Origin: an uncultured delta proteobacterium
GTDB taxonomy: Bacteria > Desulfobacterota > Desulfarculia > JACQYL01 > CAWGVV01
Direction of reading: 5' to 3'
NCBI GenBank assembly: GCA_963826125.1
Contig: CAWGVV010000002.1
Span: 1,526,855 to 1,590,854, forward strand
DNA length: 64,000 nucleotides
Each line of letters opens with the position of its first letter. Positions within the stretch are counted from its first letter, which is position 1. Positions 880-15,095 of this stretch are shown piece after piece. Both the position numbers and the translations under genes were made by a program. The notes under the pieces are model-generated. The model saw nothing but the letters and a program-made list of their open reading frames with translations, ran no database searches and was not told the DNA's origin.

Positions 880-1600
880 ACTCGACGGGCTCCGGAAGGT
901 CTATCTGCGCCACACGGCACTCGATTCGGTGAGCCTTTCCACGGGCGACGTGCGCAGCCTGGTGATCGTGGGGCCATCGGGCGGGGGGAAATCCACGCTG
1001 CTCCGCATCGTCGGCGGGCTGGAATGCCCGGACGCGGGGTCCGTGTCGCTGGACGGCAAACGGCTGTCGTGCGACGAGAATTTTCTGCGGGAATACCGGC
1101 GGTCCGTGGGCACGGTGTTTCAGGCCTACAACCTCTTTCCCCACTTGAACGCTTTGCGGAACATCACCCTGCCCCTGGAAAAGGTGCACGGGCTTCCCCC
1201 GGAGGAGGCTGAACAGATCGCCCATGCGCTCCTGGAACGGTTTCACCTGAGTGAGCACGCGGCCAAAAAGCCGTACGAGCTTTCCGGCGGCCAGCGCCAG
1301 CGGGTCGCCATCGCCCGCGCGGTATCCATCAAGCCCCGGGTGCTGCTCTTCGACGAACCCACGTCCGCCCTGGACCCGGAAATGACGGCGGAAGTGCTGG
1401 AGATGATCGCGGAAATCAAGGAGGAGGGGCGCAACATCATCATTGTCACCCACGAAATGGGATTCGCCCGGGCGGCCGGAGACGAAGCGGTCTTCCTGGC
1501 CGAAGGCCGCGTGGTGGAACACGGCCCGGCGGCCAGGGTGCTGAGCGAACCGGAAGAGGAACTGACCAGGAAGTTTCTAGAACGGGTTATGAAGTATTGA
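869..1600 (+). CDS. amino-acid ABC transporter ATP-binding protein (GlnQ-like)
   Basis: Walker A GPSGGGKST, ABC signature LSGGQRQRVAIARA, Walker B LLFDEPTSALDPE, H-loop IIVTHEM. Confidence 0.93.
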   Translation: MRLELDGLRKVYLRHTALDSVSLSTGDVRSLVIVGPSGGGKSTLLRIVGGLECPDAGSVSLDGKRLSCDENFLREYRRSVGTVFQAYNLFPHLNALRNITLPLEKVHGLPPEEAEQIAHALLERFHLSEHAAKKPYELSGGQRQRVAIARAVSIKPRVLLFDEPTSALDPEMTAEVLEMIAEIKEEGRNIIIVTHEMGFARAAGDEAVFLAEGRVVEHGPAARVLSEPEEELTRKFLERVMKY

Positions 1601-1856
1601 GAGATGGAGAAGGCGGGGAAGGACTGCCAAATAAAACAGCATGAATCGCTCAGGGAGCAGAATTGTTGTTGCTGAGCGAAGAAATAAAACAGCAGAGCAA
1701 ACCGCCCGGGTATGTCTATTTTGATTCAAAGGCTGAGAGAGGAGGGTTGTTGTGGTGAGCAATCGCTTTTGACGTTGATCGATATTGTTCATCAGATCAT
1801 GTAGATACTGATTGAATGCAATTCATTGTTATTTCATGATTATGGAGATTAATGAA

Positions 1857-2852
1857 ATGATAAAAGATCGATATCCACGAGAAACGTTCCCTGGCAACAT
1901 GCCGATAAGAGTATTAAGGAACAACATTCTTTCTTCTTTTCAAAGTTTTGGCAAAGACTCCATGAATAGACATAAGGAATGGGTGGAAAAAGGCCTTATT
2001 AATCCCGCTATAGTATTCTTGCTGGGGAAAGATAGAGTTAGAACTCCTTATGTTCGCTCTAATTCAAGGAAAATAGTTGTTCAAGATACGTTTCTTTCAT
2101 ATTTATGGGTTATAACATATTTCTTTATTATTCTTAACGAAGAAGGATTTCAACCTAGACTTAGTGGTAAAACATTTGATGGTAAGATAAGGTTCGATAG
2201 CCCAATTCTCAAAGACGCCGCTTTATTATTCAACTGGGCTGTAAGTTTAGCGAATGAATACTCGGACTGGCGATATGATTTACCTAATCCAGAAATAATA
2301 AAAAAAGGGACTACAGAATACTACATTTTAAAAATAAATGCATTGTTTCTCGATGCACTTAATTTCATATTATTACATGAATGTTGCCATTTAGTTAATG
2401 GACATTTTGAATTAGTTAAGGAAATTAACAAAAAACAGCATATAGACATTGCTGAAAATGATCTTTTGATTCTCAAAGAACTTGAAAATGATGCCGATAA
2501 TTTTGCAATAAACTCTTTATTTACCGATGCAAATAATAACGAGAAGAAGTTAATTAAAGGCCTCGCTGTTATGTTGGCCAACGTTTCCTTGTTATTTCTT
2601 ATAAAAAATCCTCAATCGGTATCCTGTAGAAATCATCCAGATATTGATACTAGAATAAGTAACTGCTTAGAATATCTAGGGAAAGATATAAAATCATTTG
2701 ACTATATCTGGCAGATAGCTTGCTTTGCTTCAATGATTTTTTTTCGTTTTCATAATATTTCGGTTGATAACGCGCCTGCTGAAACAAGCATTGATTTATT
2801 TAAAAGATATCTCGATGTGTTTGATGAAATTAAGGCTTATGATAGAAGATGA
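1857..2852 (+). CDS. HExxH zinc-metallopeptidase-like protein (ImmA/IrrE- or Lit-like architecture), orphan gene in a very low-GC islet
   Basis: ORF 1812-2852. The preferred start is ATG 1857, preceded by GGAG at 1844-1847; in-frame alternatives are 1812 (TTG), 1836 and 1842. HECCH lies at 2376-2390 inside LLHECCHLVNGH, followed about 35 aa later by ELENDADNFAINSL. This resembles the HExxH...E..AN.FA layout of COG2856/ImmA-IrrE peptidases. Sampled 60-nt lines are about 27-35% G+C, against about 60% in the flanks. Confidence 0.7.
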   Translation: MIKDRYPRETFPGNMPIRVLRNNILSSFQSFGKDSMNRHKEWVEKGLINPAIVFLLGKDRVRTPYVRSNSRKIVVQDTFLSYLWVITYFFIILNEEGFQPRLSGKTFDGKIRFDSPILKDAALLFNWAVSLANEYSDWRYDLPNPEIIKKGTTEYYILKINALFLDALNFILLHECCHLVNGHFELVKEINKKQHIDIAENDLLILKELENDADNFAINSLFTDANNNEKKLIKGLAVMLANVSLLFLIKNPQSVSCRNHPDIDTRISNCLEYLGKDIKSFDYIWQIACFASMIFFRFHNISVDNAPAETSIDLFKRYLDVFDEIKAYDRR

Positions 2853-2883
2853 TTCAAATCTGTTCGGGACTCCTGTTTTCGTT

Positions 2884-4365
2884 ATGACCGATCAAACAAC
2901 AATAAATCCTCCCCTCTCTTTTGATGTGTGCCGCGCGGCGCGGGTTGCACGGGACGCGCGGTATGACGGTCTTTTCTTCTCGGGGGCGGCAAGCACCAAA
3001 GTCTATTGCCGTCCGACCTGCCCGGGGAAACCGCCTCTTGAGTCGAACACTGTCTTTTTTAAAAGCAGGGCTCAAGCCGAAGCGGCGGGGTTTCGGCCGT
3101 GTCTGCGCTGTCGTCCCGAACTGGCTCCTGACCCGCCCCTGCAAAAAGTCGCCGGGTGGCAGGTGAGATGTGCACTTGGCCGAATCCACCGGGGGATGTT
3201 CCCCGACGACGATTTGCCCGGTGTGCAATCGCTCCTCGTCGGCGCGTCGCCGGACCGGGAGCCCGAAGATTTTCACGCCGTTGTCGGGGCCACGGTGTCA
3301 CAGTATGCGAAAACGTTTCAATCGGGCTTCGCCAAAATGGTGCTCACCGATACCCCGTTCCCCTTGGAAGACGTTGCCGTCGCGGCCGGGTTCGACACGC
3401 CGGAAACCATGCTGAACGTCTTGTCCCGCCTCCATGGGCGCGATCCCCTCGCTTTCCGGCGTCCCCTGCCGGTACAGACGTATCCCGGCGTGAAATCGTG
3501 TGCGTTGATGCTGTCCTACCGCCCCCCGTTCGACTGGTCCGCTTTGCTCGGTTTTCTCCGTGCGCGTACCATTACCGGGGTGGAAACGGTGACGGATGAA
3601 ACGTACCGGAGGAGCTTCAGCCTGCACGGATGCCGGGGCTGGTTCGCTCTGCAAAATGTGCCGCAGATGAATGCTATACGGCTGGGAGTGCATGCATCCG
3701 ATCTGTCGTGTTTGATGCAGGTGGTGTGGCGCGTCCGGCGGATGCTCGATCTCGACGCCGATCCGCTGGCTTTGGGAACCTTTTTTGGTAACGATCCTCT
3801 GCTGGGGATCGTCTGGCAACGCCACCCCGGCCTGCGGGTCCCGGTGTGTTGGGACGGCGTCGAATTCGCGGTGCGCGCCATCGTGGGCCAGGTAGTGTCG
3901 GTCACCGTTGCCACGAAGCTCGTGGGCAACATTGCCGGGGCGCTCGGAGACAACCTTTCCCCGGCACCGCCGGAAGGTATTGAAAAGGTGTTCCCCGGTC
4001 CGGACCGGCTGCTGGAGATCGAAATGCAGTCCTGCGGGTTGTCCCGCAACAAGGCGCTCGCCATAGCGACGCTTGCCCGGGCGGTGGTGGACGGCGATCT
4101 TGACTTGGAAACGGCCTGCAATCCGGACGACTTTATCAAGCGGTGCACGGCCCTGCGCGGCATCGGCGAGTGGACCGCTCAAACCATTGCCATGCGAGGG
4201 TTGGGTGACGCGGATGCGTTTCCCGCGGGCGATCTGGGGATCGTGAAATCGTTGGCCGCCGCCGGGCATCCTTTGACGCCGGCGCTCATTCGCAAAATGG
4301 CCGAACGGTGGCGTCCCTACCGTTCCTACGCGGCCATGCTCTTGTGGATGATGCGCACCAAATGA
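2884..4365 (+). CDS. alkA: bifunctional Ada-N (Zn methylphosphotriester sensor)/AraC-HTH regulator fused to DNA-3-methyladenine glycosylase II (AlkA)
   Basis: N-terminal Ada Zn-finger YCRPTCPGK...FRPCLRCRPE, then an AraC-type HTH region. The C-terminal part has AlkA_N plus HhH-GPD features (LRGIGEWTAQTIAMRGLGDADAFPAGDLG). Start trimmed to ATG 2884, because the TTG 2764 extension overlaps the previous gene. Confidence 0.88.
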   Translation: MTDQTTINPPLSFDVCRAARVARDARYDGLFFSGAASTKVYCRPTCPGKPPLESNTVFFKSRAQAEAAGFRPCLRCRPELAPDPPLQKVAGWQVRCALGRIHRGMFPDDDLPGVQSLLVGASPDREPEDFHAVVGATVSQYAKTFQSGFAKMVLTDTPFPLEDVAVAAGFDTPETMLNVLSRLHGRDPLAFRRPLPVQTYPGVKSCALMLSYRPPFDWSALLGFLRARTITGVETVTDETYRRSFSLHGCRGWFALQNVPQMNAIRLGVHASDLSCLMQVVWRVRRMLDLDADPLALGTFFGNDPLLGIVWQRHPGLRVPVCWDGVEFAVRAIVGQVVSVTVATKLVGNIAGALGDNLSPAPPEGIEKVFPGPDRLLEIEMQSCGLSRNKALAIATLARAVVDGDLDLETACNPDDFIKRCTALRGIGEWTAQTIAMRGLGDADAFPAGDLGIVKSLAAAGHPLTPALIRKMAERWRPYRSYAAMLLWMMRTK

Positions 4366-7467: not shown

Positions 7468-10253
7468 GACGGGCTCTCCTCAAAGGGCAACACCAGCTCG
7501 AAGACGCTTCCCTTGCCCCATTGGCTTTCGACCCGAATATGGCCGCCCATCGCCTCCGCCAGCCGCTTGCAGATGGAAAGGCCCAGGCCGGTGCCTTCAT
7601 ACTGGCGGGTGATCCCGGTGTCCACCTGCTGGAACGGCTTGAAGAGCGTACCCATGTCCTGCGGCCGAATCCCGATCCCGGTGTCGATGACCCGCGTGAT
7701 CAGCCGACCGTCCTCAATCCCGCTTTCGATACGCACCTCTCCCCGCTCGGTGAATTTCACGGCGTTGGTGAGCAGGTTGATGATAATCTGCTCGACCCGC
7801 CTCCGGTCGCCGACGATCCGGCCGATTGCCGGATCGATCAAGGCGGTCACCGCCAGTCCCTTTTTCCCGGCCGGCGGCTCGATTTTTTCGACGCTCTTCC
7901 GTATGGCCGCCTGCACATCGAACGAGTCGCGGGTGAGTTCCACCCGGCCCGCCTCGATCTTGGAGATGTCGAGCACGTCGTTGATCAGCTCCAGAAGATG
8001 GCGGGCGCTGTCCTGCACCATGGTGAGTTGCTTTTCCTGCTCTCCGCTCAACGGACCCACCAGCCCCATCAGCAGGATGCCCGTAAAACCGATGATGGAA
8101 TTGAGCGGAGTGCGCAATTCATGCGACATGGTCGCCAGGAACGCCGATTTGAGCCGGTCCGCCTCCTCGGCCTTTTCCTTGGCCACTTCAAGTTCCGCGG
8201 TCCTGTCGGCGACCCGCTGTTCCAATTCCACGTTCAGGCTTTGCAATTCCTGTTCCGCCTTTTGCCGCACCTCCATTTCCCGGCGGAGGTGAGCGACATT
8301 GACGGCATTCGACATGGCCAAGCCAACCGTCTGGCCGATCACCATCAGTTCGTTCTCCAATGTCGACGACGGCATGCGGCAATCCCGGTAGAGCAAATTC
8401 AGGACGCCCAGCACCCTTTCATCGGCCAGGAGAGGCACCGACACGGCGCCGCAATACCCCTGATCGTGAAGCGCCTTCCTGACAACACCATCGATCCTGT
8501 CGTCATCCTCCACATTCCAACTGGCGGCGACTTGACGGTTCTCTACCGCCAGGCCGGAAAGACTGGCGCGGACGGGAAGCCGCCTCGACTTCTCCAGCAG
8601 GGCATCGGTGAATCCCCGGGCATGGATGAGGTTCAGAGAGTCGCCGTTCTCATCCAGCAGAAATATCGCTACCGACGGCGAGTTGCTGCGGAGAATCATG
8701 GCTTGCACCGCCTGCTCGGCGATGGTGTTCATGTCCAGGGTACGGTGGATCTTGTCGGCGATGGATCGGATGGCTTCCAGGGATTCGGTTTTGGCCTCCA
8801 GCTCTCCCTGGTACCGATGCAACCGGTCTTCCGTCTTCTTTCGTTCCGAAATATCGCGAAATCCGACCACGCGAATCGGCTCGCCTCCCATATCGATGGA
8901 CCGGGCGCGCACTTCGATCGGAATCCGGACGCCGTCACGCATGATGGCGGTGACTTCGTACGGCCCGACCGCATCGTTGCGGATTCCCTCCAGTACCGGC
9001 AGGCTGGAGTCCGGAGTCACGAACTCCAGGACGTTCCGCCCGATGACGTCCTCCGGCCGATAGCCCAGCAGTTCCGTCGTGGCCGGATTGACGTCGATGA
9101 TCTTTCCCTCCACGTGGAAGAAAATGCCTTCAAAAGCGGCAGCGAAAAACCGGGAAAGCCGTTCCTCGCTCTTGGCTAGTTCGGCCGTGCGCTGCCGCAC
9201 CATGCCGCGGAGCGAACGGTTCAGCAGCATGGCAAAACCGACCGCCAGCAACGCCACCCCGGTACAGGCCAGGATGATCAAGCCGAGCGCGCGGTGGGAG
9301 GAAACATATCCTTCCTTTTTCAGGTTCACCCACCGCCGAACCAGAGCGTCATGCTCTTCAAGGGAAATGGAATCGAGCGCCTTCTGCAGGATGGAATGAA
9401 GCTGCGGCCACTCCCGACGGGATGCGAACGACAGCGGCCAGACTACCTCCGACTGACCGGCGATGACCAGATTGGTAAGCCCCAGTTGGCCGGTGTAAAA
9501 GGACGCCGTGGCCTCGTTGACCACCATGGCGTCCGCGACTCCGAAAGAGATCATTTTCAGCCCGGTCGGCACATCGGGCACCAGGACCTTGTCCAGGTCG
9601 GGGTAGTGCTCGTTCAGATAGTCGTCGGTAACGTCCCGGGCCAGGGATACCACCTTGAGGCCGCGGAGTTTGTCCAGGGTGAGATCGTGAAAAGCGCCCT
9701 TCTTCACCACGATCGCGGCGGGAAAGCTCACGTAGGGACGCGTGAAGAGCATGGTGGCGGCGCGAGCGACCGTCTCCGTGGCGGCGCCCCAGACGTCCAC
9801 CTCGCCTTTCTCCGTGTATTCCATGATTTCCCGCCAACTGGACAGATGTTTTACCGTGAACCTGACGCCCAGTTTCCTCTCCATGAGTTCGACATAATCG
9901 GCGGCTATGCCGCTGTAGCGGCCTTTTCGGTCAAAGAATTCGATGGGCGGGAAATCGGGAGAGGGCGCGATCACCAGGTTCGGATGCGCCCCGAGCCAGG
10001 CCGTCTCCTCCGGAGTCAACCCGATGCCGTTGCCCGTCGACCGCGGGGAAGCACCATACCCCGTAGCGGTTGCCAGAAGCGTCAACCAGACCAGGGCCGG
10101 AAAACAGCGCCGGAGGACGCGAAGAATCCCCGGAAGGCCGGGACGGTTTTTCCGGCCGGAGGAACCGGCGGACGATGCCGGACGCGGGGAGAAAGCCCGC
10201 GGGGCGGGCGAAGGGGAAGGGGAGGATGGGGAAAAGGTATCTCTCATGGACAT
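7464..10253 (-). CDS. sensor histidine kinase with periplasmic family-3 solute-binding domain, PAS and GAF domains
   Basis: An SBP_bac_3-like segment (VIAPSPDFPPIEFFDRKGRYSGIAADY), a TM helix, PAS, GAF, the H-box MSHELRTPLNSIIGF, and HATPase (GTGLGLSICKRL). ATG 10253 is preferred over the TTG at 10280. Confidence 0.9.
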   Translation of the reverse strand: MSMRDTFSPSSPSPSPAPRAFSPRPASSAGSSGRKNRPGLPGILRVLRRCFPALVWLTLLATATGYGASPRSTGNGIGLTPEETAWLGAHPNLVIAPSPDFPPIEFFDRKGRYSGIAADYVELMERKLGVRFTVKHLSSWREIMEYTEKGEVDVWGAATETVARAATMLFTRPYVSFPAAIVVKKGAFHDLTLDKLRGLKVVSLARDVTDDYLNEHYPDLDKVLVPDVPTGLKMISFGVADAMVVNEATASFYTGQLGLTNLVIAGQSEVVWPLSFASRREWPQLHSILQKALDSISLEEHDALVRRWVNLKKEGYVSSHRALGLIILACTGVALLAVGFAMLLNRSLRGMVRQRTAELAKSEERLSRFFAAAFEGIFFHVEGKIIDVNPATTELLGYRPEDVIGRNVLEFVTPDSSLPVLEGIRNDAVGPYEVTAIMRDGVRIPIEVRARSIDMGGEPIRVVGFRDISERKKTEDRLHRYQGELEAKTESLEAIRSIADKIHRTLDMNTIAEQAVQAMILRSNSPSVAIFLLDENGDSLNLIHARGFTDALLEKSRRLPVRASLSGLAVENRQVAASWNVEDDDRIDGVVRKALHDQGYCGAVSVPLLADERVLGVLNLLYRDCRMPSSTLENELMVIGQTVGLAMSNAVNVAHLRREMEVRQKAEQELQSLNVELEQRVADRTAELEVAKEKAEEADRLKSAFLATMSHELRTPLNSIIGFTGILLMGLVGPLSGEQEKQLTMVQDSARHLLELINDVLDISKIEAGRVELTRDSFDVQAAIRKSVEKIEPPAGKKGLAVTALIDPAIGRIVGDRRRVEQIIINLLTNAVKFTERGEVRIESGIEDGRLITRVIDTGIGIRPQDMGTLFKPFQQVDTGITRQYEGTGLGLSICKRLAEAMGGHIRVESQWGKGSVFELVLPFEESPS

Positions 10254-10694
10254 GGCTTTCTTCCGCCGGGGGTACTGCAACGTGACCGTTCCTTGGCGCC
10301 CGAAGTCCTCGGCCTCGTGGAGAAAACGATTTTTCCATGCACCGAAGGTCCGTTTCGGCGAGTTTCATGTCTCCGGGGAGTAGGGCGACAGTTACGGTCA
10401 CCGGGGTCTCTGCATCCGCGCGCGAGTTCGGGTGAAAGGGACCGGGCATTCCTACATAAAGCAGACCGGAAATTCGCTGTGGCGAGCTATTGGGCCTCAA
10501 CCGGGTCACGTCGGGCACACTGACCAGGAACGGTGGAATTCAATTGATTCCGTCACTCTTAGATGTAAAAAAGGTAATTAATACGAATGAAAATGAAACG
10601 TTTCGACAGTATAGCAGACTTCCCCCCAAGAGCCGAATATTTTTTCCCGTTTAAAAACCCGTGCCGCCGGCGGGCCGGGATATCCGGACGCGGG

Positions 10695-10787
10695 GGCCGC
10701 GTGGCTGGACGGCAGGCAGCCACGGTGCTGAGCGAGCCCGGCGAGGAACTGACACGTCGGTTTCTGGAACGGGTGATGGAGTGTTGA
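10695..10787 (+). pseudogene. orphan 3'-terminal fragment homologous to the ABC ATPase gene end (compare 1505-1600)
   Basis: Translates ..GRVAGRQAATVLSEPGEELTRRFLERVMEC*, against ..GRVVEHGPAARVLSEPEEELTRKFLERVMKY* for the intact gene. Nucleotide similarity continues past the stop codon. No Walker motifs lie upstream. Confidence 0.65.
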
Positions 10788-11073
10788 GAGAAATACAGAG
10801 CGGAAAAGGATTGCCAACAATCATTTTATTGCTCAAAGAGCTGCTCCGAGATGCGCCGGTCCCCGCAAGATACGGTGAAGGGACCTTCTACCTATCCCCG
10901 ATCAAGGATAGCCCCAAAAAGCGGGAACTGTTGCCGCTGATCGAGGAGACAAAATGCAGAGTAAGTTCCCGGTGTTTGTTTATTTAATTCGATGACTCTG
11001 AATCGGACGGGTGGTTGGGTGTTGTGGCGAGGCCGTCCGCTTTTGACACTGATTGGGATCGTTCATCACATCC

Positions 11074-11106
11074 GGTAGGGTGGGTAGAGTGAAACGAAAC
11101 CCACCA
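11074..11106. repeat. palindromic (REP-like) unit GGTAGGGTGGGTagagtgaaacgaaACCCACCA
   Basis: Internal hairpin GGTGGGT/ACCCACC. An inverted partner lies at 11204-11237. Confidence 0.6.
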
Positions 11107-11203
11107 TGCGAGTATTATTATTCCATTGGTGGAATGCGGGCCAATCAATCTCGTGCACGGTTCCGGAGGTAGCGGGGCATTTTTTTATTGGTTGCATATG
11201 AAT

Positions 11204-11237
11204 TGGTGGGTTTCCGCTGCGCTCAACCCACCCTACG
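11204..11237. repeat. inverted copy of the REP-like unit (TGGTGGGTTtccgctgcgctcAACCCACCCTACG)
   Basis: Its reverse complement matches 11074-11106 at both arms. Together the two copies bracket about 165 bp just downstream of the AIPR gene stop, a MITE-like geometry. Confidence 0.6.
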
Positions 11238-11252
11238 CCGTTGTTATTCTTG

Positions 11253-12974
11253 TCAAGATGGGCTAACCATGTTGGCCCAATCTGAATACTGATTTCCTAC
11301 GTTCATCGATAGCATTATGGCAGACACCGTCCTCGAAATAGATTCCACAGCGTCATCTTTTCCCATGCATTCGGAGAGGCTCTCTGGTCGTAATTGAGCA
11401 CAGACAAGGCTCAAGATAGATGTTACTACAGGAAGAGCCGCAGCGACCAATGCTGTGAATGTATAATTGGCTATATTTGCGTTTTCAGGTGAATATGCTA
11501 TAGTACCTATATCGACTCGGCGTCCAATGATCGGCTCTAATGACTTTGCAAGTATCGACATAAAGAAGAATTTGAAACGCAAATTTCTTAAAAGTATTAG
11601 TTGCTGCTCTTCTAATTTCATTAGCCCACCAATTTCTGCTGCCTTTCTCTTGAGTTCCAAACGACGCTCATCAATGGCCCGCGCGAGAGAGTATACAAAT
11701 AAAATATGACGTGCCTTCTTACCGTCAAACGCGGTTTTATAGACCGCACCACGTTCAAATACACGATTCCGCCCGCGGTTTGCCTCGGAATATCGACCTA
11801 CGAAAGCTGCTAGCGGCTGGGCTACATCCTCAATGCTGATTGAGTCTGCTGAAGGACGAAACCCTCTCTTTCGCTCATAAGAATACCCCAAGTCATGAAA
11901 CTCTTTTTCGATGCGAACCTGTTCCGGGTCACCGCTGTATTGATCCCATGTGGTTATCTCATTTTGTGTGTTGTTGAAACGGACAATAGTTCCTATTTTT
12001 TCAGGATCTTGACAGCGTATCACTCGACAGAGAACGCGTAGATTTCTGATGTCGTGCTTACTCAAATCAACGCTTCCAATTGCACCTGTCGTTTGAGCAC
12101 CATTTATTACGGATACACCTGTAAGGCGTGTACCAGAACCCACTTCGGAAAAACCAAGAGTGACAACAGTCACCCCATTATTATATACCCAGAAGTCTGC
12201 GGGGGTTGTCTCTGCTGTGCTACGAATTGCAGTGTTTATCTTACGCCTACGACTAAAACCAAGAAATCCTCGATAGTTAGCAGAAAACAACGCGTCGCCG
12301 TACTTATTAAACATTGCGTGCAGCCAAGAACCAGGAGCTGAAAAAATTCCTGCTTCCCATTCCGGGCCACTTTCCATAAAAGCTATTCTAGCTGGACAGG
12401 TCACCTCGTCCATAACTTCGATATGCGATTCTTGAGAGGCAAACAAGTGTTCTATCTGAGGCGCACCAAGTTCTTTCGCGTTTGAAGTGATGGGAGATGC
12501 AGTACCTAAAAAGTTCCTTAAGTGAGCTACCACAGTTTGTAGCTCTCGATATACGCTCACAGATTCAGGTAGATTGTGGACATATAAAAGGTGGATACTA
12601 CTGATTTCACCTTCATGAAGGGCGTTTCTACATTCCTCGATAGCCGCCCTCAATTCTTTCGGTATTTTTTCTGTATCGCCAGAGAAAAGCCAGGCTATTG
12701 CTGTATTTAGGTCGGCAGCTTTGTTTGAGGGTGCCGTGTCCTTGAGAGATTTCGCATAGTAGCCTTGAGCGAGCACTATCCGACCCTCATCACGATCAAG
12801 ATAGATGAAATCGATCTTTTTGTCGTCATTTCCGTCTGTCAAAGCCTCCGAGGCGAGGGCCTCAAGGTCTGACTCCTGCAGTAAAAGACCGAGTGCCCAC
12901 ACGAGGTGAGCGTTACTCTCACCAATTTTTAATATCAGGGAGTTTTGCGCTCTAAACGCATCTGTATATGCCAT
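11253..12974 (-). CDS. AIPR-family (abortive infection phage resistance) protein
   Basis: 573 aa. The N-terminal segment TDGNDDKKIDFIYLD and the INGAQTTGAIGS motif are typical of the AIPR family as I recall it. AAGAGG RBS. Sampled lines are about 42-47% G+C. Confidence 0.78.
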   Translation of the reverse strand: MAYTDAFRAQNSLILKIGESNAHLVWALGLLLQESDLEALASEALTDGNDDKKIDFIYLDRDEGRIVLAQGYYAKSLKDTAPSNKAADLNTAIAWLFSGDTEKIPKELRAAIEECRNALHEGEISSIHLLYVHNLPESVSVYRELQTVVAHLRNFLGTASPITSNAKELGAPQIEHLFASQESHIEVMDEVTCPARIAFMESGPEWEAGIFSAPGSWLHAMFNKYGDALFSANYRGFLGFSRRRKINTAIRSTAETTPADFWVYNNGVTVVTLGFSEVGSGTRLTGVSVINGAQTTGAIGSVDLSKHDIRNLRVLCRVIRCQDPEKIGTIVRFNNTQNEITTWDQYSGDPEQVRIEKEFHDLGYSYERKRGFRPSADSISIEDVAQPLAAFVGRYSEANRGRNRVFERGAVYKTAFDGKKARHILFVYSLARAIDERRLELKRKAAEIGGLMKLEEQQLILLRNLRFKFFFMSILAKSLEPIIGRRVDIGTIAYSPENANIANYTFTALVAAALPVVTSILSLVCAQLRPESLSECMGKDDAVESISRTVSAIMLSMNVGNQYSDWANMVSPS

Positions 12975-13143
12975 GGTCTACCTCTTGTTCCTTCTCATTT
13001 GCAAAAACCAACGCTTACCCTCAGAGGTTTGCGAGGCGCACAGCGTACAGACAATCTGACAGTAAAGCATTGTTATACTATAAATTTTTGAGTATTGCCG
13101 TCCCACCAAGCAATCAACTTTGCTGATGCTCCTGTTTAACGTG

Positions 13144-14010
13144 CTATAGCGTTTGTTGCTTTCTGAGATTGTTAACGTGTTCAGAGAGAGTACGCGCGTT
13201 TACCGGCCTATAGTGGAACATATTCAGGAACTCCACAGAGTGGAAATCAACATTCCAGAAGCCGGAGTACGCGGTCAGAATATCGCGGTTGGGCAGCACG
13301 ACTATGTCCGTAGGTTTGTATTCTATAGCCACAGAAACTGTTGTCGCACCGAGTTGACCACTGATGCCGAAGCGAAATACGTCTGAGGACTCGTTAAGCA
13401 AACTAACTAATTCGCCTTCAGGCACTAAGTCAGTAAAGAATGTTTGCACCATTAGAGTTATAAACGGACTCCTGAAGGAAGGGCGAACTCTCCAGTCTCC
13501 CCCTAACTTGAAATAGGAAGATATTTCTGCGTTCACTAACCGTGATCTTGTGGTGTTCATATATATCACAAGAAATTTCTCATCTTCTGTGCAGTAATAG
13601 GCATATCTTGAAAAGACTACCGCATTCCTAGGGGGCGAAAGAAACTTTGCAGTGAGCGCCGCAAGAGTAATCCCCAGAATGCCTGTACCAAAAATCGCTT
13701 CTAAGACCGTGATGAAACGAGCGCCATTACCGTCCGGGCTGTAGTCACCATAGCCAATGGTCATAATGCTGATGAAATTGAAATAAACGATATCCCACAA
13801 ACCCACTGCAGAGCAATCAGTAGCTTTGACCCAAGTGTGATCAGGACCGGAGAAATACCACTCTATGCCTGAAATGGCTGCAACCACCAAGACGTAGAGC
13901 GCCAATCCGACAACGGCGATCAACCACATCGGCCAAGAGGCGAGCCACCTTATGCGTAGTCCGGTTCGCTTCCTGGGAAGACGGCACAAGTCCTGATCTT
14001 CATTGTTCAT
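13144..14010 (-). CDS. KirBac-like (inward-rectifier-type) potassium channel
   Basis: 288 aa with a TM1-pore-TM2 core. The K+ selectivity filter TIGYGD is encoded at 13744-13761. The beta-rich cytoplasmic domain starts PPRNAVVFSRYAYYCTEDEKFLVIYMNTTRSRLVNAEI, which resembles the Kir C-terminal domain. Confidence 0.8.
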   Translation of the reverse strand: MNNEDQDLCRLPRKRTGLRIRWLASWPMWLIAVVGLALYVLVVAAISGIEWYFSGPDHTWVKATDCSAVGLWDIVYFNFISIMTIGYGDYSPDGNGARFITVLEAIFGTGILGITLAALTAKFLSPPRNAVVFSRYAYYCTEDEKFLVIYMNTTRSRLVNAEISSYFKLGGDWRVRPSFRSPFITLMVQTFFTDLVPEGELVSLLNESSDVFRFGISGQLGATTVSVAIEYKPTDIVVLPNRDILTAYSGFWNVDFHSVEFLNMFHYRPVNARTLSEHVNNLRKQQTL

Positions 14011-14414
14011 TTTTCTCTCTATAGCTTATATGGCAATTTCGGAATCACTTAACAATAATTAGATATATCCAATGAAATTTAATTTTATCTGTCCGTTGAG
14101 AACATGAGTAGGGATCATTGTCGCCTTGACATCATTGCGGCCTAAGGAATCCCGGGCCGTTTAGATGAGTAACCCGTTTCCAGCAGGTGTGTGGTGAGGG
14201 AACGACAACAAGTATCGTATTTAACCATGCTTGGCTATTACCTTAAAACAGCATATTAAGCAATGAAAATGGTAACGGAGAGAAATCGTCCATGTGCATT
14301 TACAGTAGACGAATCATAACCTAAATCTTTCAAGACAAACCTCCGCAACGCGTCTAAATCGGTAGGATGCGCTGCGTCGCTCGACCCCACCCAAGTCAAA
14401 CGTATCTGCCCATC

Positions 14415-15095
14415 TCAGATCGTCTTGGATAGCTCGACAGCCTCCTGCGAGCACACCAGAAAGCAGCTTCCGCATTCGTCGCAGCGTGAACCGTCCACTC
14501 GGTAGGGATCGCCGAGAACGATGGCTTTGAAAGTGCACGCATCGAAACACTCTCCGCAGGCAGTACATTTTTCAGGGTTGATGCGGGCGCCGGCCTCGTT
14601 GAACGTTTCGCCGCCGAAACCGAAACGGGTGCGCAGGAGTTTGTGGTCGCGGTGCTCCATCTCGAAATCGAAGTCGAAGATTTCACCTTTGCCCTTGAAG
14701 ATGCAGAACAACCGCAGGGCAGGGTACCGGGCCGCGTCTTTCAGGAAGTATTGGTGAACCGCGCTTCCGGCCGCCGCTTTTTCCTTTACCTCGTCTTCGG
14801 GAATTTCGCGGGCCTCCCCGGTGATGCGCAGGGTGAACCCGGGGGCGAAGGTGGGTTGCCCTACCGCGTTCTTCCCAGTCTTGCGGCTGGAAGGGTAGAT
14901 GCCGCACAGGGCCACCTGAGGGTTGTTTTTCAGTTGCCGATAGAACGGCTTCACATACATGGTAAGAAAGTAGATGCCCTGGTCATCGCCGCCAATGATG
15001 CCGACGATCCGGCTGTGCATGGTTTCGCCGTCCAGGGTCGTCATTGAGAGCGAACCGACCTTTTTTATGGCTTCATGAATTTCATGCAACGTCAC
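14415..15095 (-). CDS. pyridoxamine 5'-phosphate oxidase-like FMN-binding protein fused to a 2x[4Fe-4S] ferredoxin domain
   Basis: N-terminal PNPOx-like split barrel. C-terminal CTACGECFDAC and CDECGSCFLVC cluster motifs. Confidence 0.78.
   Translation of the reverse strand: MTLHEIHEAIKKVGSLSMTTLDGETMHSRIVGIIGGDDQGIYFLTMYVKPFYRQLKNNPQVALCGIYPSSRKTGKNAVGQPTFAPGFTLRITGEAREIPEDEVKEKAAAGSAVHQYFLKDAARYPALRLFCIFKGKGEIFDFDFEMEHRDHKLLRTRFGFGGETFNEAGARINPEKCTACGECFDACTFKAIVLGDPYRVDGSRCDECGSCFLVCSQEAVELSKTI

Follow-up and report, generated by a model that had tools for sequence, protein, structure and literature searches.

We analyzed a stretch of 64,000 nucleotides (the window) from an uncultured delta proteobacterium (contig CAWGVV010000002.1, positions 1,526,855 to 1,590,854), which contains a short islet of low guanine-plus-cytosine (G+C) content at about positions 11200-14400. 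The composition profile gave a G+C of 0.43-0.47 for the islet and 0.57-0.64 for both flanks, and the genome as a whole is about 60% G+C. Two open reading frames (ORFs) lie in the islet in the same orientation: 13144-14010(-), which encodes 288 amino acids, and 11253-12974(-), which encodes 573 amino acids, with a gap of 169 bp between them. A preliminary description of the window, made from the sequence alone, had read the first as a potassium channel of the KirBac type and the second as an abortive-infection protein of the AIPR family, and had proposed that the two form a defence module. Its account of two co-oriented minus-strand genes in a low-GC block agreed with the ORFs and the composition obtained here. 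The features of the islet and its borders are the following.

10665-11078, plus strand: left junction, in which the 3' end of an ABC-transporter ATPase gene and the spacer downstream of it are present as a diverged copy; homologous to window positions 1505-1805.
11075-11236, no strand assigned: inverted-repeat element of about 160 bp with imperfect 28-nt arms (GTAGGGTGGGT...ACCCACCCTAC), directly 3' of the stop codon of the AIPR gene.
11253-12974, minus strand: AIPR-family protein, AbiU-like, 573 amino acids (Pfam PF10592, PADLOC AbiU).
12975-13143, minus strand: spacer of 169 bp between the channel and AIPR genes, common to no homologous locus.
13144-14010, minus strand: divergent Kir/KirBac-like K+ channel, 288 amino acids (Pfam Ion_trans_2; AlphaFold2 (AF2) model and Foldseek matches to Kir and KirBac).
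14095-14210, minus strand: probable decayed remnant of an IntI/XerD-like tyrosine recombinase, from the catalytic region at its C-terminus, read by three-frame translation, with one frameshift and one stop codon.
14211-14414, no strand assigned: right border zone, in which G+C climbs back to the host level; the host PNPOx-4Fe4S gene ends at 14415.

The G+C at third codon positions (GC3) was 0.40 in the AIPR gene and 0.52 in the channel gene, and 0.72-0.82 in the flanking host genes. On account of the low G+C, the low GC3, the recombinase relic and the left border at a duplicated junction, we conclude that the block is foreign, horizontally acquired DNA.

The channel protein consists of N-terminal helices, a first transmembrane segment (TM1), a pore helix, the selectivity filter TIGYGD, a second transmembrane segment (TM2) and, at residues about 126-288, a cytoplasmic domain rich in beta-strands. 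The filter, which the preliminary description had placed correctly at 13744-13761, corresponds to residues 84-89. In 37 members of the family, G86 was invariant, and T84, Y87, G88 and D89 were each conserved in at least 90%. An hmmscan search (E<=0.1) of the channel gave Ion_trans_2 (E=1.9e-11) and a sub-threshold Lig_chan only, and the Pfam families IRK (PF01007) and IRK_C (PF17655) did not match in this search. PADLOC contained no model for the channel, and a generic pore domain was all that Pfam, NCBIfam and PADLOC gave. In a profile search of the PDB the protein was matched over its pore only, with a Kir chimera aligned at residues 63-161.

Because the sequence libraries returned the generic pore domain alone, we tested the likeness to Kir channels by structure. 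The AF2 model had a predicted local distance difference test score (pLDDT) of 89.9 and a predicted template modelling score (pTM) of 0.75, and its strands from residue 131 to 239 were at pLDDT >90. When the model was compared with the PDB by Foldseek, the first 50 matches listed were KirBac3.1, a K+ channel of Burkholderia pseudomallei (2wll), Kir2.2, GIRK2, Kir4.1, Kir6.2 (KATP) and Kir7.1, together with one further entry (9ma5) labelled just 'a transmembrane protein'. The E value was about 3e-11 over about 250 of the 288 residues, with 17-19% identity, and the aligned part covered the cytoplasmic beta-domain. That is, the model indicates that the channel is KirBac-like in fold, and at the sequence level it lies outside the curated Kir families. 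The earlier assignment held for the fold, cytoplasmic domain included.

The likeness to KirBac1.1/KirBac3.1, Kir2, Kir3 and Kir6 consists of a pore with two transmembrane segments, a pore helix, a TxGYGD filter and a beta-rich domain right after TM2. Kir channels carry the segment P-K-K-R-x-x-T-L-x-F-S-x-x-A-V, and the stretch K-F-L-S-P-P-R-N-A-V-V-F-S-R-Y-A, which follows TM2 of the islet channel, resembles it. The channel differs from the KirBac and Kir proteins in its low identity to them, in having no IRK/IRK_C match and in belonging to a small family of a single architecture. In addition, members of this family occur in mobile DNA and defence islands and not at conserved chromosomal positions.

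This family comprises 96 clusters at 90% identity, all of about 285 amino acids and with one architecture. When the cytoplasmic domain alone was used as the query, 53 proteins were obtained from 1.84e9 representatives, and almost all of them had the same architecture. The distribution is patchy and crosses phyla: members with 40-80% identity occur in Acidobacteriota, delta-proteobacterial metagenome-assembled genomes (MAGs), Planctomycetota, Alphaproteobacteria and Bacteroidota. A tblastn search of plasmid and phage collections with the channel gave no match. Some copies of the channel seem from their sequences to be undergoing decay or to have changed in function, because the filter TIGYGD is lost in P0092, which has GAG-TE instead, and because the copy in L012 (7998-8875) is split into two ORFs.

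The 573-residue protein matched the Pfam AIPR family (PF10592) with E=2e-28 over residues 230-499, at 100.3 bits against a cut-off of 25, and the family identity given by the preliminary description was borne out by this score. PADLOC assigned its AbiU model (E=1.7e-29) to the core alone; the alignment covered profile positions 242-444 of 537, and the N- and C-terminal thirds were unmatched. The protein has a conserved N-terminal acidic/basic motif; NGAQT lies in its central AIPR core, and the C-terminal third is helical. The two motifs that had been read earlier as DG.DD..ID and NGAQT are DGNDDKKID at residues 47-55 and NGAQT at residues 291-295. In an alignment of 36 homologues, the invariant columns included D47, D51, K52, K53, D55, N291, G292, A293, Q294 and T295. 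The subfamily is large and uniform, with more than 1,597 clusters, mostly of about 572 amino acids.

The AF2 model of the AIPR protein had a pLDDT of 84, and Foldseek found no significant fold match for it in the PDB. The best match was a CdiA-CT toxin at E=0.17, and we therefore make no claim of a nuclease fold. The islet protein and AbiU (AbiUi) of Lactococcus lactis have the AIPR core in common, but the terminal thirds of the islet protein were unmatched by the AbiU model. Models of MzaE also matched the core (PADLOC E=3e-15; NCBIfam 63 bits), but this is far below the NCBIfam equivalog cut-off of 1050, and MzaA-D of the MZA system are not adjacent, as the islet contains two ORFs. From these matches, the 573-residue protein is clearly an ordinary new member of the known AIPR family, AbiU-like in its core. 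PADLOC and Foldseek, which the preliminary description had proposed for both proteins, thus gave the AbiU model and no significant PDB fold match for the AIPR protein, and a Kir/KirBac fold and no PADLOC model for the channel.

In order to clarify whether the channel and the AIPR protein form a pair, we collected 45 channel loci, of which 12 came from reference genomes, 27 from metagenomes and 6 from exact look-up. About 25 of them are independent and have flanks of several kb. The reference-genome loci belong to Acidobacteriota, delta-proteobacterial MAGs, Thermoguttaceae, Shimia, Sulfitobacter and Bacteroidota. An AIPR gene was found near the channel in none of the 45 loci, within the flanks obtained. 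In 42 of them the flanks were scanned by tblastn and by an AIPR hidden Markov model built from 40 homologues; in the remaining three, absence was read from Pfam gene tables and from blastn with the islet.

The reverse comparison gave the same result. Among AIPR homologues of 82-68% identity, four had a readable flank (P0099, P0101, P0104 and P0105), and no channel gene was present upstream of any of them. A fifth homologue (P0098, 82% identical, in L048) had 160 bp of upstream sequence only and was uninformative. The upstream neighbours of the AIPR homologues were as follows.

AIPR homologue 82% identical, L049: a divergent DUF192 gene.
AIPR homologue 80% identical, L016/L017: an HSDR_N_2-like gene and an ORF of 68 amino acids.
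AIPR homologue 73% identical, L018: an integrase gene.
AIPR homologue 68% identical, L050 241-567 and L051 144-470: a TIR_2 gene of 108 amino acids at a distance of 15 bp, in two contigs.

The TIR_2 and AIPR genes of L050/L051 could be a real pair. As a whole, the AIPR subfamily seems from these flanks to travel alone into many different mobile contexts.

When the islet was compared by blastn with all fetched loci, the matches lay within either 11253-12990 or 13150-14018, and none crossed the spacer. We also looked for any other recurrent partner of the channel by comparing neighbour ORFs with one another by BLAST, all against all, first in a set of 130 and then in one of 179. No recurrent partner was found among them, and the sole clusters came from duplicate or closely related contigs. 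Because the adjacency is without conservation, the DNA homology is confined to each ORF and the channel has no recurrent partner, the channel and the AIPR gene are separately mobile single-gene cassettes and not a conserved pair.

These data bear directly on the proposal that the channel and the AIPR protein constitute a dedicated two-gene system, in which the AIPR protein would be a sensor or nuclease and the channel a membrane effector or trigger. The genes are co-oriented and 169 bp apart in one low-GC block, and no terminator was detected between them. A precedent for an ion-channel effector with a soluble partner is given by HalA/HalB of the Hailong system (PMC13434031; PMC13586616). Furthermore, the small TIR gene lying 15 bp upstream of AIPR in L050/L051 raises the possibility that this AIPR subfamily accepts variable partners. 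Against these points stand the absence of the adjacency from all channel loci and from the AIPR contexts examined, and the homology to relatives, which ends at each ORF. The GC3 values of the two genes are unequal, and the more than 1,597 AIPR clusters outnumber the roughly 96 channel clusters, so that most AIPR proteins must be without such a partner. Moreover, the single protein AbiUi suffices for phage resistance in Lactococcus and acts alone there, and the abortive-infection phenotype described for AbiU is a delay in phage transcription (review PMC13064643). We therefore regard a dedicated Kir-AIPR system as very unlikely. The preliminary description had itself named a lack of conservation of the Kir-AIPR adjacency across genomes as evidence against its module, and this lack is what we observed.

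We think it probable, instead, that the block (about 10665/11075 to 14414) is an acquired mini defence islet in which two independent single-gene modules are chance neighbours. For the AIPR gene, the family assignment places it among abortive-infection proteins. For the channel, a relation to defence was sought in the genes that surround its homologues. The neighbourhoods in which defence, toxin-antitoxin or restriction genes were recognised are listed below.

L013 (channel 81% identical): TIR-FGE-sulfatase gene directly upstream, an integrase and a second TIR protein.
L014: complete Pycsar pair PycTM and PycC, a further PycC-like protein and Peptidase_U49.
L053: LRR-Roc-COR-TIR protein and PemK.
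L054: DUF4062-NACHT-FGE-sulfatase protein.
L052: YafQ toxin-antitoxin.
L009: bSEFIR.
L027: operon with a short prokaryotic Argonaute (pAgo).
L029: type I HsdS (restriction-modification).
L006 and L008: UG13b defence reverse transcriptase.
L010: PDC-M62B / PtuB-like protein.
L004: SoFic.
L034: DrmD.
L037: type II methyltransferase / PD-Lambda-5_B.

Of about 24 independent loci, at least 14 carry, by our count, a recognised gene for defence or toxin-antitoxin function within about 4 kb of the channel. A tally of Pfam and PADLOC matches in 120 neighbour ORFs was led by TIR_2, HTH, IS21 transposase, reverse transcriptase (RT), HipA, AbiEii and NotI, and it also included general families such as Response_reg and AAA. 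As the family is repeatedly embedded among defence genes, these neighbourhoods suggest that it is linked to defence islands in several phyla. The link is suggestive rather than statistical, because the count of about 24-25 loci has no matched background. The neighbourhood survey recommended in the preliminary description thus had a divided outcome: the Kir-AIPR adjacency does not recur, but the channel family does recur among defence genes.

Some of these arrangements deserve description. In L014 (2830-6888), PycTM and PycC are followed by a PycC-like protein of 436 amino acids and then by the channel, all co-oriented, and Peptidase_U49 lies 4 kb downstream. In L027 (4918-8894), a gene for a protein of 466 amino acids, the short pAgo gene (PADLOC pAgo_I, E=4e-193) and the channel gene lie on one strand, with a gap of 88 bp between the last two. 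The channel is convergent with the UG13b reverse transcriptase in both L006 (8846-10288, Shimia) and L008 (8912-10372, Sulfitobacter), and the two genes overlap in Shimia. These reverse transcriptases are 64% identical to each other and are the sole neighbour common to two different genera. FGE-sulfatase proteins adjoin two of the closest channel homologues, as a TIR fusion (L013) and a NACHT fusion (L054), and a true sulfatase adjoins a third (L052).

The same neighbourhoods can be read in another way, namely that the channel is a swappable effector downstream of varied sensors (TIR, SEFIR, PycC-like cyclase, NACHT, pAgo) and is gated by a nucleotide-type messenger. The channel of the window would then be orphaned, or would be served by a sensor encoded elsewhere. 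The one specific observation in favour of this is that the upstream neighbour is co-oriented with the channel in about 14 of 19 loci; this neighbour is often a signalling-type immune protein (L013, L053, L009, L014 and L027). In addition, Kir6.2 binds ATP on the homologous cytoplasmic domain. However, the upstream partners are mutually unrelated, and some of them are complete systems (PycTM and PycC in L014) or are predicted to be so (the 466-residue protein with pAgo in L027). Intervals of 100-480 bp occur often, many loci lack such a neighbour, and no nucleotide-binding motif was identified in the channel. On balance, we consider a messenger-gated, exchangeable effector unlikely.

It is also conceivable that the channel is an ordinary accessory K+ channel, serving ion homeostasis or osmoadaptation, which hitch-hikes in defence-rich variable regions. 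Its canonical K+ filter and ordinary Kir architecture fit such a role, as do the housekeeping setting of some loci (L052), the loci in which no defence neighbour was recognised (about 10), the absence of the family from the phage and plasmid collections and the lack of a PADLOC model. An ordinary accessory function agrees less well with the very patchy, cross-phylum spread of a family with near-identical architecture at 40-80% identity. Nor does it agree well with the rarity of the family (53 representatives in 1.84e9 proteins) or with the defence genes that directly adjoin the channel gene in at least 14 of about 24 loci. We therefore give a low probability to this explanation.

Returning to the reading of two independent modules, the following mechanism can be considered. 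The AIPR protein would bring about abortive infection by itself, like AbiUi in Lactococcus. The channel would be a tetramer that is shut in healthy cells. Its Kir-like cytoplasmic domain may sense an infection cue, for example a protein of the phage or some change in a nucleotide or other small ligand, much as Kir and KATP channels are gated by ligands that act on this domain. Upon opening of the channel, K+ would run down its gradient, K+ homeostasis and membrane energetics would collapse, and the infection would be aborted. From the families, folds and neighbourhoods described above we infer an action of each gene against phage, the cue for gating and the effect of opening. We therefore speak of the channel as a reasonable candidate for a stand-alone, infection-gated K+ effector. 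We further suggest, tentatively, that the divergent Kir-type family as a whole (about 50-100 clusters of about 285 amino acids) might be a single-gene anti-phage system, with the cytoplasmic domain as the sensor and a gated K+ flux that aborts the infection.

Several points weigh against this interpretation. The channel is tied to defence through guilt by association, in about 25 loci and with no matched background control. About 10 channel loci had no recognised defence neighbour among the neighbours scanned, and some loci lie among housekeeping genes, as in L052, where the channel is located between tRNA synthetase genes. A strictly K+-selective channel clamps the membrane near the K+ equilibrium potential (E_K) and does not cause simple depolarisation, and hence an abortive outcome of its opening is not obvious. 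As to the independence of the two genes of the window, a consensus scan of the 169-bp spacer found neither a promoter nor a terminator. The two genes may be co-transcribed. A local, newly formed functional coupling of the channel and the AIPR protein is likewise compatible with the sequence.

The nearest functional comparison for the channel is the Hailong system, in which oligo-dA made by HalB keeps the tetrameric channel HalA closed (PMC13434031). A validated defence system of the P4 hotspot pairs a protein containing pentapeptide repeats plus an IRK domain with a nucleotidyltransferase (NTase)/HEPN protein (PMC13586616). Hailong thus offers an earlier example of an anti-phage effector that is a tetrameric ion channel and has a regulatory domain in the cytoplasm, and an IRK-type K+-channel domain is known in a validated system. 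The islet differs from Hailong in that no nucleotidyltransferase partner is present in it or recurrent among the 120-179 channel-neighbour ORFs. It differs from the P4-hotspot protein in that Pfam reports no pentapeptide repeats in the islet channel. HalA reportedly conducts Na+ inward, whereas the islet channel has a canonical K+ filter. Nothing named HalA or Hailong occurred among the first 50 Foldseek matches listed. In the literature on Kir or K+ channels in phage defence, we found only the Hailong-related IRK-domain protein, and no solo Kir-like channel in defence islands.

Abortive infection through lost membrane ion homeostasis is also brought about by RexAB of phage lambda (RexB) and by membrane effectors of CBASS and Pycsar (PycTM, Cap15). 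The folds of RexB, PycTM and Cap15 are unrelated to that of the islet channel, and those proteins depend on a sensor or cyclase partner, whereas the channel is without a conserved partner.

We think that the interesting part of the islet is the Kir-like channel, a reasonable defence candidate from a rare family which has no PADLOC model and is linked to defence islands. If the family does protect against phage, the channel would be a minimal one-gene effector whose K+ filter is canonical and whose fold is well understood, and structural and electrophysiological work on Kir channels would be directly usable. The Kir architecture, known from the animal heart, brain and pancreas, would then have a place in bacterial immunity, and a K+ channel without a partner would be added to the few immune effectors known to be ion channels (RexB, HalA). 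It would then also be asked what ligand is recognised by this Kir domain in a bacterial cell. The negative result on the pair is useful as well: adjacency within a low-GC islet is no evidence of a system, and two cassettes can be accreted at a recombination hotspot.

We now describe the borders of the islet. Upstream of the channel gene, the three-frame translation of 14095-14210(-) reads ..RSLTTHLLETGY..LGRNDVKATMIPTHVLN across the frameshift and the stop codon; in place of the catalytic Tyr it has Pro (..MIPTHVLN). When the hand-joined peptide was searched against the PDB by phmmer, the best match was the catalytic C-terminus of the integron integrase IntI4 (2a3v, residues 272-307, E=0.0037), and XerD came next. 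The peptide gave no match to Pfam, for which it is probably too short, and no support was gained from a comparison with the integrases of L013 and L018, the PDB search being the sole support. We therefore regard this segment as a probable recombinase relic on modest evidence. The preliminary description had stated that no integrase is present, and this is correct for an intact one but overlooks the frameshifted relic. As a test for an integron, we noted that the 116-bp IntI4/XerD-like relic points toward the channel gene and that the only inverted repeat of the islet is 11075-11236.

This inverted repeat has arms at 11075-11102 and 11209-11236, which are 79% complementary, and it can fold as one long stem (RNA fold -62.9 kcal/mol, z = -4.0). 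It had been described as a pair of inverted repeats resembling repetitive extragenic palindromic (REP) elements. The inverted repeat is real, but the REP-like character is unsupported, because its 11-mer core occurs at the two arm sites only and nowhere else in the window, where the element is single-copy. No Rfam family matched it. The element could be like a miniature inverted-repeat transposable element (MITE), or it could be a transcription-terminating stem. An Rfam scan of 10000-15000 gave nothing relevant, and no tRNA gene is located within the 64-kb window.

On the right side, the islet ends at the stop codon of the host PNPOx-4Fe4S gene (Pfam; 14415-15095). A copy of this gene with 85% DNA identity is present in the metagenome contigs L055-L058, and the homology stops exactly at 14415. 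The flanks of these copies differ entirely from the window, one having a major facilitator superfamily (MFS) transporter and the other a D12 methyltransferase with an ORF of 498 amino acids. Since the shared DNA is that gene only and the flanks are unrelated, the comparison of islet presence and absence by means of this gene (PNPOx-Fer4) was uninformative on the islet.

On the left side, the duplicated junction that had been noted earlier was confirmed by blastn, in which 10665-11078 matched 1505-1805 of the window at 76-84% identity. In the pairwise alignment, the homology ended at 1805 and at 11078, and a low-GC islet starts at each of these points. The intact ABC ATPase ORF is located at 869-1600, its family having been assigned by reading the sequence and not by Pfam. 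In the junction copy, 10665-10790 is a truncated ATPase pseudogene remnant ending in ..VLSEPGEELTRRFLERVMEC*. Because both low-GC islets start at the same kind of junction, the duplicated sequence looks like a recombination or integration hotspot that may collect Abi-type genes.

The second low-GC islet (window 1806-2900) begins exactly at the end of the junction sequence 1505-1805. Its G+C is about 0.32-0.35, with 0.35 in the bin 2001-3000. It contains an ORF at 1812-2852(+) with a G+C of 0.32, which encodes a protein of 346 amino acids assigned to Peptidase_U49, a Lit-like abortive-infection protease family. The window thus carries a third gene of the Abi type at a paralogous junction.

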